The notes: generated from the sequence alone by a model not told the origin. Shown: positions 33,399-38,223, counted from the first letter of the stretch. The stretch: 64,000 nt of DNA from Anaerolineaceae bacterium (GCA_035315125.1 DATFYI010000164.1:444-64443), one strand, 5' to 3'. Numbers and translations: made by a program.

Positions 33399-33428
33399 CC
33401 CCTAAAATCTGTTCCCCGGATTTTGGGG
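33399..33428. repeat. G/C-capped palindromic (REP-like) hairpin
   Basis: CCCCTAAAATC-N9-GATTTTGGGG. Same architecture as the hairpins at 37917-37945 and within 38015-38223. Confidence 0.5.
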
Positions 33429-33483
33429 TCGCGGAGCATGCCGTAGGCGGAGGCTGGGTGGGGGTGCATTTAGCCCTGTCGGA

Positions 33484-33791: not shown

Positions 33792-36188
33792 TTAAGCCGG
33801 GTTATTTCTAATTTCCAGGTATGCATGAAAAGGAACATTAATTTTATAACGTTCAAATCCAGTTTCTTCAGTAACGCGTTTTGCAAGTTTCTGTATTACT
33901 TTTTTTCTGCTTTCATCATACACAAATTCAAAGCTATTTATATCCGTTTCCAATCCTAGAAACGTTGAATCAATTAATAAATCAATTATAGAATCCACAT
34001 TTGACTTAGGAATTTTGACCTTTTCTAATAATTCTTGGATCTCATTTCTTGAAATAATCTCTTTTCCACCGGCAAATTCATAAAGAAAATCTTCAATTCC
34101 ATCAAATTGTGTTTCGGTCTCAGCTAGTAAGGAACTAAAAGCCAATTCGGAGTAGCTATCTTCAGCTTGAAGAATATCTTTTTCTTCAATTTTTTTGTTT
34201 TTATGATTAACAGCATTATTCAATGCATTTTTACAAAGAAAAATTAAATCCCTTGGCCTAGGAATAATCCGACTAACCAGATATTCTTTAATTGGCAAAT
34301 TATTGATTTTTGAAACAAAATACTTTTCCCAAATATTGTCTATGTCAATCTCTGTAGATGAACTTAAGAATCGTTCTTCTATTATTCGTTGTAATAATTG
34401 ATGGTCATTCCAATCCATTCTAGTAAAATTTAATTTATCGCTTTCTCTTGCATTGGACTTAACATAAGAAAATATATCACTTCGCAAGAAAATTATTAAC
34501 GATAAATGAACCGGTGCAAATCTCATCTTTTGTTTATTAAATTCATCGGCAATAGTTTGCCCACAACTAAGTAATCCGAATAGAAAATCTGTTAAAAGTT
34601 TAATGTTTTCCCCCTTTTCCCATGCTTTATCTAGATTGTCTATTAATATTATTACTTTATTTTTAGTTTCTAAAATGTTGCCAAGGAGTTCTCGCAATTC
34701 GCCTAAAATCTTAATGTGGAGTATTTCACTCACCTTGGCACGCTGTTCTCTAATATTGAATTGCAAGTTTAATCCGCATAAATTATCAATAGCATATTCC
34801 ATTCGCCAGGTAAAATCTTGTTTTATAAATGGTTGATTATTTTCAATAAATGTTATTAAATTTTTCTCCTTTTCTGTGGAATCTATATATGAAGGCTTAT
34901 TATTAATATTGCTATAAACAAGATTCGCCAATTCAGTATATATAAGAAATTTCCATAAGCTTTCAATCAGATAACCGGGGTCTGCTTTCGTAATGTTCGA
35001 ACTTAATAGACGCAGTACACCCTCAAGTTCATAATCAATGGGCTTAATAATGCACACTAAATTTCGTTTATCTAATTCGAGTTGCTTAGCGATTTGGAAC
35101 AAATTCGCCGTTTTTCCGCTCCCCTTTCGACCAATATATATTAAGTATTTTTCTGCTTTTAGAGCTTGAAAATAAGAAGCAGTAGTGACAAAATAATCGC
35201 TTAATTGCTGTTCTTCATTCTCAGCCACATATTCACCGATATTAATTTTTTGCAAATCAGCCATCAATGCTAAATTTGTTTTTCTTTCTTGCCCTTCTTC
35301 ATCAATAGTAAAAAATTTATTTTTAACCCAAGGTAGCCAAGTTTCTAATTTAGCCTTTAATTCAGAAGCAGTTTCATGAATATAAAGGAGGTCTCGAAAA
35401 TCAATTGGCGAATTAAATGGTGAATGGGCTAACATTAGTAGCGGTTTACCAAGACCAAATGCTATTCCTGAAATGATGGAATATTTCGAATTTTGTATTA
35501 GTCCGATATTTTCTTCTCTGTCTTCACTTATAAAATGGGCTATTACTCCAAACGAAGAATAGACATTTTGAGCATACCAGATTAATGGTTGCCCAGATAT
35601 TTCTTTGTTGTCATCAACTACTAATCGTATTTTCGACTCTTTTAAACTTCGATTAAGCTCAATGCTAGCATCAGTATTTACTTCGCTTTTTAAGTAAAAC
35701 AAGAATGGCTTTCTATCCTGATATTGAGATTCAAGGTTTTCGAAAATCCTTTTATAAATGGTTGACTCTAAATCTAGATAAGGTTGTTCTATAAAGAAAT
35801 TTCTTGTAAGATCTACGGAGTTTTGATATGCCGAGTATGCAATAGTTGATAATAACCCCAATTTTTTATAATTCTTTACAGATTCATCTAAAGATGTGTC
35901 CAGCGTTATCCAAATTCTTTTATTTCTTGAAATCGCATATCCAAGTTCAAATAAAACGTTCCTATTTAAAATTGTTAAATCACAGATGAAAATATCACAA
36001 TCATCTATTGATTTACATATTTCAGAAATGATTTCCTTCCCAGTGTTATTTAATGTTTTCCACCCAACCATATTGACATAATCACTTGCACAGCCATTTA
36101 CATTGGATATAAACAATTCAATGGATTCTCCCCTATCAAGAGGCTTCTCGGGATATGCAACAAAACATTTTGCACTTGTCATTTCCAT
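33792..36188 (-). CDS. tandem TIR-like (Cap12/Pycsar-effector-type) domains fused to a P-loop NTPase and a helical C-terminal region (798 aa); candidate defence protein
   Basis: Domain 1 has CFVAYPEKP...DIFICDLTILNRNVLFELGYAISRNKRIWI. Domain 2 has FLFYLKSE...AHFISEDREEN...SIISGIAFGLGKPLLML. Walker A is YIGRKGSGKTANL and Walker B is KVIILIDNLDKAWE, followed by an arginine-containing IIPRPRDLIFL segment. Codon usage is very AT-rich. Confidence 0.7.
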   Translation of the reverse strand: MEMTSAKCFVAYPEKPLDRGESIELFISNVNGCASDYVNMVGWKTLNNTGKEIISEICKSIDDCDIFICDLTILNRNVLFELGYAISRNKRIWITLDTSLDESVKNYKKLGLLSTIAYSAYQNSVDLTRNFFIEQPYLDLESTIYKRIFENLESQYQDRKPFLFYLKSEVNTDASIELNRSLKESKIRLVVDDNKEISGQPLIWYAQNVYSSFGVIAHFISEDREENIGLIQNSKYSIISGIAFGLGKPLLMLAHSPFNSPIDFRDLLYIHETASELKAKLETWLPWVKNKFFTIDEEGQERKTNLALMADLQKINIGEYVAENEEQQLSDYFVTTASYFQALKAEKYLIYIGRKGSGKTANLFQIAKQLELDKRNLVCIIKPIDYELEGVLRLLSSNITKADPGYLIESLWKFLIYTELANLVYSNINNKPSYIDSTEKEKNLITFIENNQPFIKQDFTWRMEYAIDNLCGLNLQFNIREQRAKVSEILHIKILGELRELLGNILETKNKVIILIDNLDKAWEKGENIKLLTDFLFGLLSCGQTIADEFNKQKMRFAPVHLSLIIFLRSDIFSYVKSNARESDKLNFTRMDWNDHQLLQRIIEERFLSSSTEIDIDNIWEKYFVSKINNLPIKEYLVSRIIPRPRDLIFLCKNALNNAVNHKNKKIEEKDILQAEDSYSELAFSSLLAETETQFDGIEDFLYEFAGGKEIISRNEIQELLEKVKIPKSNVDSIIDLLIDSTFLGLETDINSFEFVYDESRKKVIQKLAKRVTEETGFERYKINVPFHAYLEIRNNPA

Positions 36189-37555: not shown

Positions 37556-37903
37556 TCACAGCGCTTCCAAAATAGCCTGCGCCACGCCATCTAAATTCTT
37601 CAAAACCTCGTCGTTCCAGAAACGCAATACCCGGTAGCCCTTGGATTTAAGGAAAGCGGTACGCTCAAGGTCATATTCTTGCTGGTCAAGATGCTGGCCT
37701 CCGTCCAGCTCGATCACCAATTTCTGGCGCGGGGCGCAAAAATCAACGATGTAAGGGCCGATGGCGTGTTGGCGGCGGAAGTGGATGTCCTCTAATTGGT
37801 GCGAACGCAGCGCTCGCCATAGTCTGGCTTCGGCCTCGGTCTGGTTGTGGCGCAGTTGGCGGGAATTCGAGAAGGTTTGCGGGCTGGTGCGACGGTGGGT
37901 CAT
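37556..37903 (-). CDS. DUF559 (Vsr-like) endonuclease domain protein
   Basis: RQLRHNQTEAEARLWRALR...FRRQHAIGPYIVDFCAPRQKLVIELDGGQH...DLERTAFLKSKGYRVLRFWNDEV. Start at the ATG at 37903; the track TTG start lies inside a palindromic repeat. Confidence 0.85.
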   Translation of the reverse strand: MTHRRTSPQTFSNSRQLRHNQTEAEARLWRALRSHQLEDIHFRRQHAIGPYIVDFCAPRQKLVIELDGGQHLDQQEYDLERTAFLKSKGYRVLRFWNDEVLKNLDGVAQAILEAL

Positions 37904-37916
37904 ACCCCCTCCAGCT

Positions 37917-37945
37917 CCCCCAATTTTAAAAACCAAAATTGGGGG
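37917..37945. repeat. G/C-capped palindromic (REP-like) hairpin
   Basis: CCCCCAATTTT-N7-AAAATTGGGGG, a perfect 11-bp inverted repeat. Confidence 0.55.
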
Positions 37946-38014
37946 AGAGAAAAACAGAGCATTTCAGGCAAAATTGGGTACGGAGAGCATCTTATTATAA
38001 GATTTACAGCTTGT

Positions 38015-38223
38015 CCCCTCCGCTAAAATCCGGTTTTTGGATTTGTCAAAGCTGGGCCTGTAAAAATCGGGGCAATTGTGGTCGTGGATATATGGTTTTA
38101 CCCCCCCGCTGAAATCCGGTTTTTGGATTTGGCAAAGGTGGGTCTTTAAAAAACCAGGTTAATGATGGTCGTGGATATATGGTCTTACTCCTCCCCCAAA
38201 ATCATGTTTTTTGATTTTGGGGG
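38015..38223. repeat. tandem ~86-bp repeat (2 full copies + partial), each containing a palindromic hairpin
   Basis: Copy 1 is 38015-38096 and copy 2 is 38101-38183; they share CCCC(T/C)CCGCT(A/G)AAATCCGGTTTTTGGATTTG...GGTCGTGGATATATGGT. A third palindrome CCCCAAAATCATGTTTTTTGATTTTGGGG lies at 38194-38222. Confidence 0.7.

Follow-up and report, generated by a model that had tools for sequence, protein, structure and literature searches.

A gene at positions 33792..36188 (minus strand) of a 64,000-nucleotide stretch of DNA from an Anaerolineaceae bacterium (GCA_035315125.1 DATFYI010000164.1:444-64443; the window, at its full length) encodes a 798-residue protein in which an N-terminal nucleoside 2-deoxyribosyltransferase (NDT)-like domain and a second alpha/beta domain are fused to a P-loop ATPase of the Sll1717 family. 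We propose that this NDT-ATPase is a self-contained, horizontally mobile immune protein, directed against phages or other mobile genetic elements and probably acting by abortive infection, in which the ATPase gates an N-glycosidase. The probability of this reading is put at roughly 0.55. An earlier note on the same stretch had described tandem TIR-like domains of the Cap12/Pycsar type joined to a P-loop NTPase; the fusion of an enzymatic N-terminal module to such an NTPase is borne out by the present analysis, and the identity of each part is revised below.

Domain 1 Is Nearest to the NDT Superfamily

Domain 1 (residues 1-142) was compared with domain profiles both within the intact protein and as isolated segments from 37 family members. 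For the window protein, PF05014 (Nuc_deoxyrib_tr) scored 18.1-20.7 bits, the intact sequence giving 18 bits over residues 50-98, under the gathering threshold of 28.8, and the PADLOC model for the CBASS "Effector TIR" gave a sub-threshold match at residues 53-96 (E = 0.02). With the whole protein as query, PF10137 (CAP12/Pycsar-TIR) gave no match at E ≤ 1. All 37 isolated segments matched PF05014, weakly (best E = 8e-7), and 33 of them matched PF10137, also weakly (best E = 1e-4) and centred on the catalytic helix; matches to TIR_2 were seen for five segments and to DUF4062 for one (E = 0.17). The window's own domain 1, taken alone, reached 14.5 bits against PF10137 (cut-off 24.7) over residues 75-91 only, and the gathering thresholds of the canonical TIR families (PF13676/PF01582) were not reached. 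For some homologs a PF05014 hit is already precomputed.

When family profiles were searched against the sequences in the PDB, domain 1 matched solely DNPH1/Rcl, NDTs and CMP N-glycosidase, with no TIR, and Glu81 was aligned with the nucleophilic Glu of the "YELG" motif of DNPH1. In an alignment of 114 full-length homologs, on which all conservation counts in this report are based, Glu81 is kept in 111 sequences, Asp70 in 113, Thr72 in 112 and Asn77 in 109. The AlphaFold2 (AF2) model of residues 1-320 has a predicted local distance difference test score (pLDDT) of 93 and a predicted template modelling score (pTM) of 0.91. In a Foldseek search the predicted domain 1 came out as an NDT-type fold, the best PDB matches being an NDT (7o62), DNPH1 (8rpt) and BcmB (4jen) with a probability of 1.0 and TM-target values of 0.66-0.71, whereas TIR-containing structures (RPP1, TIR-STING and SARM1) fitted the model only at a root-mean-square deviation (rmsd) of 17-24 Å.

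The profile matches, the fold and the conservation of Glu81 together indicate that domain 1 is of the NDT-superfamily N-glycosidase type. It lies on the borderline between the NDT and CAP12-TIR groups, nearer to NDTs and DNPH1, and its retained residues suggest that it is probably catalytically competent. The earlier assignment to a TIR-like/NDT fold therefore holds at the level of the NDT/CAP12-Pycsar group, but the best matches are NDT, DNPH1 and CMP N-glycosidase and not canonical TIR domains.

Domain 2 Lacks the Catalytic Glutamate

A second beta-alpha-beta domain (residues 155-275) is modelled by AF2 with high confidence. Its comparison with domain 1 by hhalign gave E = 0.63, with FELGYA..K against IISGIA..K as the sole aligned stretch, and a domain 2 profile found no match in PDB sequences or Pfam. 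On these results the possibility that domain 2 is a detectable duplicate of domain 1 was rejected. Where domain 1 has Glu81, domain 2 carries Val or Ile in 109 of the 114 homologs. The second TIR-like copy of the earlier note, described there as degenerate at its acidic position, does lack the catalytic Glu, but the case for a second copy consists of its topology and a 16-residue motif.

A dozen polar residues of domain 2 are near-invariant (T172, S175, D192, D193, E196, Y205, H218, N233, K235, H255, D263 and H271), which argues for a role in ligand binding or as an interface and not for mere decay. An arrangement of one catalytic and one regulatory copy can reasonably be inferred; that the two domains pair as a pseudo-dimer is something we only infer.

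The ATPase Half Is a Member of the Sll1717 Family and a Remote Relative of DS-41

The remainder of the protein matches NF047389 ("P-loop ATPase, Sll1717 family") at 277.9 bits (cut-off 75; E = 1.8e-82). The match spans residues 317-771, corresponding to profile positions 1-443 of 454, and includes most of the C-terminal ~130 residues. Far from being an orphan, the NTPase is a full-length member of this curated family and a remote homolog of DS-41. The Walker A lysine and the family motifs LDxxW/Y, FLR[SD] and RPRD are intact, with K359, D520, W523, R569 and R646 invariant among the homologs and aligned with their counterparts in enterobacterial members, and the RPRD segment is also conserved in DS-41 (as SPRE) and in the enterobacterial relatives. 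The Walker B motif reads D517-N518-L-D520-K521-A-W523, where relatives carry DKLDE. The lack of a D-E pair here (DNLDK) suggests that the switch may depend on ATP being bound and not on its rapid hydrolysis.

The top PDB matches of the full-length AF2 model in Foldseek were Cdc6/ORC proteins (1fnn, 1w5t and 2v1u), with a probability of 1.0 but TM-target values of 0.35-0.44, followed at lower rank by RuvB, TnsC and proteasomal AAA+ subunits. Pfam ORC-CDC6-like matches are faint or weak in homologs, and the Walker B motif departs from the canonical D-E form; the sensor-2-like R646 is invariant. The predicted fold is tentatively ORC/Cdc6-like AAA+. In a comparison with signal transduction ATPases with numerous domains (STAND), the Pfam matches were sub-threshold and confined to the P-loop region (nSTAND5, nSTAND3, AAA_22 and ATPase_2); no NACHT, NB-ARC or AAA_16-type domain scored above threshold, and no PADLOC Avs or NLR model matched. 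The AF2 model contains no large C-terminal repeat sensor (TPR, WD40 or LRR), ending in only ~130 residues of helices and hairpins. What had been read as a helical sensor of ~200 residues is modelled as the AAA+ lid and a small winged-helix-like unit, lying mostly inside the ATPase profile. The suggested Avs/bNACHT/STAND logic survives in the fusion of an effector to an NTPase, but not in its NACHT/NB-ARC signature or its large repeat sensor.

DS-41 (construct AAA2; WP_033812887.1; NF053860) is a single-gene anti-phage ATPase of 502 residues validated by DefensePredictor (PMC13092281), of which 399 residues, from the supplement of that paper, were available for comparison. The family profile aligned with DS-41 in hhalign at 87% probability (E = 3.8e-6; residues 312-655 against DS-41 residues 9-377), and pairwise BLASTP gave E = 4e-4. 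The window protein did not match NF053860 at E ≤ 1 (curated equivalog cut-off 370 bits), and Sll1717-family relatives scored 25-54 bits against this cut-off; enterobacterial members matched "DS41_1_antiphage" weakly. By these comparisons the protein is related to DS-41 but does not belong to its family. Through this alignment the ATPase chassis acquires a validated, if distant, anti-phage relative.

A Conserved Family of Constant Architecture

A word-indexed search returned at least 629 homologs, nearly all of 780-810 residues, with 98%-100% query coverage and 41%-54% identity. The alignment has 34 invariant columns, and in ~140 conservation reaches at least 90%; these columns lie in every part of the protein. 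The invariant residues include F80, G83, Y205, G241, G356, G358, K359, D517, N518, D520 and W523, together with R569, D571, P645, R646 and D647. The motifs quoted in the earlier note are all where it had placed them, namely CFVAYP and DLTILNRNVLFELGYAISRNK (residues 70-90) in domain 1, SGIAFGLGKPLLML in domain 2, and GRKGSGKT (residues 353-360), IILIDNLDKAWE (residues 513-524) and RPRD (residues 644-647) in the ATPase, and they are conserved far beyond chance.

With the ATPase half as query, an exhaustive HMMER search retrieved 1,754 clusters (50% identity) at E ≤ 1e-3 and 478 at E ≤ 1e-30. Classification of the 140 cluster representatives that were new in this search gave 102 with the domain 1-domain 2-ATPase architecture and 38 fragments of it that are truncated at the N-terminus. 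Because every shorter protein in this set is such a fragment, effector swapping within the close family was rejected; a different module is found in distant enterobacterial members only. Split two-gene versions were likewise rejected, the apparent "stand-alone" N-terminal proteins being frameshifted copies of the full gene. Two homologs (L008:6001-8371 and L009:6001-8396) are frameshifted into two to three open reading frames (ORFs), and one of them lies next to a type I restriction-modification system. The readiness with which members of the family decay fits costly, dispensable genes.

True members of the Sll1717 family (E = 1e-86 and 6e-74) also occur on roughly 220 enterobacterial plasmids and Klebsiella phage-plasmids. 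They have ~690 residues and carry the ATPase at their N-terminus; the NDT module is absent, and a C-terminal domain of ~225 residues resembles PDC-M36A, a PADLOC candidate. A chassis that combines with two or more alternative accessory modules shows the modularity expected of immune sensor-effector proteins. Assignment of the enterobacterial C-terminal module to the PD-(D/E)xK nucleases, on a "D...FDAKN" motif, was rejected; it had no support from PDB sequences, and the module matches PDC-M36A only. On the E. coli plasmid pRHB34-C04_3 (L090:4965-7058) the Sll1717 ATPase gene directly follows a Tn3 transposase and resolvase and is near blaCMY-2, and the Klebsiella phage-plasmid GArcari-2022b (L092:2986-5052) carries a Sll1717-family ATPase without NDT domains. 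The enterobacterial gene looks like uncharacterised defence-like cargo of clinical plasmids.

Members of the NDT-ATPase family are currently called "nucleoside 2-deoxyribosyltransferase" or "nucleotide-binding protein" by RefSeq PGAP. The earlier statement that the protein matches no named system is upheld: none of the PADLOC 2023 models or NCBIfam 2026 "antiphage" models matched it, and literature searches on Sll1717 and on NDT+Cdc6 or NDT+STAND defence architectures found no account of it.

A Stand-Alone Gene with a Patchy Distribution

The 798-residue ORF is real. It starts with ATG, and a hypothetical protein of 100% identity from an Anaerolineaceae metagenome-assembled genome (MAG) is on record with a start two codons later (796 residues). 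Its G+C content is 31%, and that of an upstream ORF of 301 residues is 38%, compared with 54%-63% for the flanking genes and 52%-63% for the flanks of the gene. The contrast with the flanks marks 33.6-37.4 kb as AT-rich and foreign, as had been proposed, and on G+C content the gene is horizontally acquired. Neither a tRNA nor flanking direct repeats were found at the borders of the island.

Relatives occur in at least 370 GTDB species representatives, and the best 80 loci cover at least 15 phyla. Presence is patchy, at ~0.2% of species. Full-length copies were found on 16 plasmids and 8 viral contigs of IMG/VR, with ATPase-only relatives on ~25 more IMG/VR contigs; the deposited phage genomes contained no full-length copy.

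The gene has a stand-alone, single-gene organization. All-versus-all clustering of 1,376 neighbouring ORFs yielded no conserved partner, the largest cluster being present in 6 of 89 homolog loci. A retron reverse transcriptase (RT) was not a recurrent neighbour in these loci. The 301-residue gene had been considered a possible partner; it is absent from all 89 loci and forms an independent family of its own. Both it and a nearby DUF559 gene were rejected as partners, tblastn finding neither in any homolog locus.

Defence genes are frequent around the family. Some loci are clear examples of defence islands: L002 has SIR2, a TIR protein, a methyltransferase and a Type ISP fragment, L008 has type I restriction-modification, and L005 has DUF4238 with PIN-VapB. 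Neighbours across the family include DISARM, BREX PglX, toxin-antitoxin pairs and transposases. PADLOC searches of the inner ring, 253 ORFs within 2.3 kb of the gene at 82 loci, returned strong matches to ThsB, GajB and DrmMI/DrmD, as well as type IIG, III and IV restriction-modification, SIR2 and SIR2 associated with prokaryotic Argonaute (pAgo). Among 127 ORFs at 6.5-10 kb, strong matches were obtained to PglX, Cas1, REase_II, RT (a single match) and HEC-09.

Proposed Mechanism

Our proposal assigns a part to each of the three modules. Domain 1 would act as an NDT-superfamily N-glycosidase retaining the nucleophile Glu81. Domain 2 would be a catalytically dead partner that either mimics the second subunit of the obligate NDT dimer or binds a regulatory ligand, and the DS-41/Sll1717-type AAA+ half with its winged-helix-like end would form an ATP-dependent switch. 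An infection cue, perhaps a phage protein or foreign DNA, would lead the ATPase to oligomerize with ATP and bring the N-terminal modules into an active arrangement. The activated modules would then cut the N-glycosidic bond of an abundant nucleotide. By analogy with the NDT-like effector of retron-Eco1 the likeliest substrate would be NAD(P)+, with (deoxy)nucleoside monophosphates, as for DNPH1, as the alternative; phage replication or host growth would be stopped as a result.

This mechanism draws on several precedents. The NDT-like effector of retron-Eco1 (Ec86) is a toxic N-glycosidase that hydrolyses NAD(P)+ (PMC12673091) and needs dimerization or filament assembly (PMC12673091; 10.1101/2023.08.16.553469), and classic NDTs are active only as dimers (10.1101/2023.08.16.553469). 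NDT domains have been proposed as toxins of conflict systems (PMC3710099), and NACHT-fused TIR-like NADases are thought to be activated by oligomerization (10.64898/2026.05.01.722283).

Several observations weigh against an immune role or against parts of this mechanism. A number of homologs lie among housekeeping genes (L004 and L006). The inner and outer rings of neighbouring ORFs, compared without a genome-wide background, show no near-versus-far gradient; for both reasons the defence-gene neighbourhood is suggestive only as a pointer to the role of the family. The Pfam matches of domain 1 are all under their gathering thresholds, and domain 2 is without detectable homology to anything by hhalign or in PDB sequences and Pfam. 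The Walker B motif lacks the canonical catalytic Glu, which leaves the ATPase chemistry uncertain. The link to DS-41 is one of remote homology only, from 399 of 502 residues, and the window protein misses the DS-41 model. Finally, the domain 1-domain 2-ATPase architecture is known from sequences and predicted models alone.

Alternative Explanations

Two other functions are each improbable but deserve consideration. The first is a DNA-directed base-excision restriction factor, in which foreign or hypermodified DNA would be bound by the ATPase and winged helix, leaving the NDT domain to remove bases from DNA or from phage-specific nucleotides such as 5-hydroxymethyl-dUMP or 5-hydroxymethyl-dCMP (5hm-dUMP/5hm-dCMP), NAD+ not being depleted. 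In its favour, domain 1 is closest in sequence to the 5-hydroxymethyl-dUMP N-hydrolase DNPH1 and to CMP N-glycosidase; the predicted ORC/Cdc6-like chassis ends in a winged-helix-like unit, and NDT domains of conflict systems have been proposed to act on DNA (PMC3710099). Set against this, the substrate-binding Asp80 of DNPH1 is not conserved in the profile alignment, and the sole characterized NDT effector in defence hydrolyses NAD(P)+.

The second is a selfish function of a mobile element, either as a module for the maintenance, addiction or exclusion of a plasmid or transposon or as an ORC-like factor for replication or partition to which a toxic domain is attached. The 16 plasmids with full-length copies, the occurrence of chassis relatives as Tn3 cargo and phage-plasmid genes, and the ORC/Cdc6-like fold would all suit such a function. 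Most copies, however, are isolated chromosomal genes without adjacent mobile-element functions, no conserved antitoxin-like neighbour was found in the 89 loci, and the near-invariant enzymatic Glu suits an effector and not a replication initiator; we consider this explanation no likelier than the preceding one.

A new kind of restriction factor, whose mechanism would differ from that of every named system and would not involve NAD+ depletion, was also considered and is judged quite unlikely. Here an ORC/Cdc6-like, ATP-gated DNA-binding switch, perhaps operating by binding only in view of its non-canonical DNLDK Walker B, would license the DNPH1-like glycosidase to remove bases from phage DNA or from the phage-specific hypermodified nucleotides 5hm-dUMP and 5hm-dCMP. 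The dead domain 2 would be its pseudo-dimer partner within the same chain or a nucleotide sensor.

That the protein is a Cap12/Pycsar-type TIR NADase in cyclic-nucleotide signalling, or a canonical Avs/bNACHT STAND protein with a large C-terminal sensor, is very unlikely. The weak matches to PF10137 (33 of 37 segments) and TIR_2 (5 of 37), the CBASS TIR match in PADLOC (E = 0.02) and the sub-threshold nSTAND matches point in this direction. Against the first version, neither a cyclase nor another conserved neighbour is present in the 89 loci, and NDT, DNPH1 and BcmB rank above all TIRs by both sequence and structure (TIR rmsd 17-24 Å); against the second, a NACHT/NB-ARC match and a repeat sensor are both missing, and the ATPase is predicted to fold like ORC/Cdc6.

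An ATP-regulated housekeeping or stress-related enzyme of nucleotide salvage or sanitization has equally poor prospects: the NDT/DNPH1 family is mostly metabolic and some homologs adjoin housekeeping genes, but the family is patchy across phyla at ~0.2% of species, has foreign G+C content, no conserved metabolic neighbours and frequent pseudogenes, and is carried on plasmids and prophages. The ATP-gated immune N-glycosidase is thus the explanation we prefer.

Features of the Window and Neighbouring Genes

The features of the protein and of its surroundings are collected in Table 1.

Table 1. Coordinates of the NDT-ATPase Gene, Its Parts and Neighbouring Features
Feature	Position	Strand	Description
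Complete ORF	33792..36188	(-)	Stop included; tandem N-terminal alpha/beta domains, Sll1717-family ATPase, winged-helix-like end; full-length AF2 pLDDT 91
Domain 1, residues 1-142	35763..36188	(-)	NDT/DNPH1-like, CAP12-TIR-like N-glycosidase fold; presumed catalytic; from profiles and AF2/Foldseek
Catalytic-loop/helix motif D70-L-T72...N77-V-L-F80-E81-L-G83-Y-A85...K90	35919..35981	(-)	E81 corresponds to the nucleophilic Glu of DNPH1 "YELG"
Domain 2, residues 155-275	35364..35726	(-)	Sequence-orphan alpha/beta domain; presumed regulatory or pseudo-dimer partner; from AF2 and profile searches
Long connecting helix, residues 276-316	35241..35363	(-)	Joins N-terminal module to ATPase; AF2 helix H274-314
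P-loop ATPase core and lid, residues 317-665	34194..35240	(-)	NF047389 Sll1717; predicted ORC/Cdc6-like AAA+ fold; remote DS-41 homolog
Walker A GRKGSGKT	35109..35132	(-)	G356, G358, K359 invariant
Walker B region IILIDNLDKAWE	34617..34652	(-)	D517, N518, D520, W523 invariant; no canonical D-E pair
FLRSD	34476..34490	(-)	R569 and D571 invariant; sensor-1-like position, end of core strand
RPRD	34248..34259	(-)	P645, R646, D647 invariant; sensor-2-like Arg, start of lid helix
C-terminal ~130 residues	33795..34193	(-)	Helices and beta-hairpins, winged-helix-like; candidate ligand- or DNA-binding end
ORF of 3013 residues	21416-30457	(+)	Upstream of the island
Weak inverted match	33416-33435		20 nt, 75%; near left edge of island
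ORF of 73 residues	36242..36463		No family assigned
ORF of 301 residues	36471-37376	(-)	Orphan family
DUF559 gene	37556-37936	(-)	126 residues; Vsr-like endonuclease fold; E = 4e-43; 55% G+C
Tandem direct repeats	38001-38066 and 38087-38152		66 nt, 82% identical; just right of DUF559 gene

The transposase debris reported earlier beside the gene is not supported. It corresponds to the ORF of 73 residues, which had no match in Pfam, NCBIfam or plasmid tblastn searches and was rejected as a transposase remnant. Scans for promoters and terminators gave no more sites than were found in shuffled sequence.

The ORF of 301 residues belongs to a well-conserved orphan family with at least 165 homologs of ~295 residues and identities of up to 78%. 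This family has no Pfam, PADLOC or NCBIfam match and never co-occurs with the NDT-ATPase family. Elsewhere its members lie in defence-like settings, near a CHAT protease, DUF4238, DUF5677 and a ResIII helicase (L095) or near a 1430-residue nSTAND5 protein (L094), and the gene may be an independent defence candidate in the same AT-rich islet. The DUF559 gene adjoins the island and has the G+C content of a normal host gene, which by composition places it outside. The 66-nt repeat is present in the window as the two tandem copies alone and might be an element of the repetitive extragenic palindromic (REP) or miniature inverted-repeat transposable element (MITE) kind.

Two kinds of gene were seen beside the NDT-ATPase gene at individual homolog loci. 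A gene for an 8xMP octameric membrane protein (~160 residues; PF24838, E = 1e-34 to 1e-40) directly adjoins it at three loci, in a Chloroflexia MAG, Nonomuraea and Actinoplanes (L011:9489-9977, L081:12326-12808 and L082:8915-9370), and may be an occasional accessory. At a single locus a 2H phosphoesterase gene (L001:12374-12928; 2_5_RNA_ligase2, E = 5e-15) begins 7 nt past the NDT-ATPase stop codon; this arrangement is non-recurrent.

Significance

If the proposed role is correct, the family would represent a single-gene immune system in which a DS-41-type ATPase is combined with an NDT-fold glycosidase. Such a system would be widespread, with carriers in at least 15 phyla and at least 370 species and further copies on plasmids and in prophages. 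NDT-fold effectors would then reach beyond retrons. The Sll1717/DS-41 ATPase chassis would gain a readable output domain, which could help to clarify how DS-41-like proteins sense infection. The protein would also provide a natural tandem of a catalytic and a dead copy of a normally homodimeric enzyme, and a compact ATP-gated nucleotide-cleaving switch of possible value as a tool. Were the family not defensive, it would still be a large, conserved and unannotated one.

Comparison with Known Systems

The NDT-ATPase plausibly belongs among the NTPase-gated nucleotide-cleaving immune proteins, as a single-gene member of its own type. Its closest curated family, NF047389, has the same motifs throughout, under a name that covers the ATPase only and carries no function. 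With DS-41 it has in common the AENE, G-R-x-G-x-GK-[ST]-A, LIDxLD and PR[DE]LIxLC motifs and the single-gene organization; unlike the window protein, DS-41 is without NDT-like domains.

The small enzymes DNPH1/Rcl, the NDTs and BcmB/MilB are the best matches of domain 1 in sequence and structure, with the catalytic Glu aligned. They differ in being stand-alone, homo-oligomeric metabolic enzymes of ~12%-20% identity to domain 1, and the Asp80 of DNPH1 has no conserved equivalent here. An NDT-fold domain with a catalytic Glu is also the effector of retron-Eco1, where control is exerted by a reverse transcriptase and multicopy single-stranded DNA (msDNA) and not, as here, by a fused ATPase; the retron effector is absent from the sequence and fold matches of the family.

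The similarity to CBASS Cap12 and Pycsar PycTIR (PF10137) is confined to a weak profile match at the catalytic helix of domain 1 that falls short of the Pfam threshold. Cap12 and PycTIR are switched on by the cyclic nucleotides of a neighbouring cyclase, whereas neither a CD-NTase nor a pyrimidine cyclase recurs in the 89 loci. Avs, bNACHT and TIR-NLR STAND proteins, together with Swarozyc and the NACHT-linked DUF4062 NADases (10.64898/2026.05.01.722283), share the logic of an N-terminal nucleotide-cleaving effector joined to an oligomerizing NTPase. In contrast to them, the family described here has no NACHT/NB-ARC signature and no TPR, WD40 or LRR sensor, and its ATPase is predicted to adopt an ORC/Cdc6-like fold.

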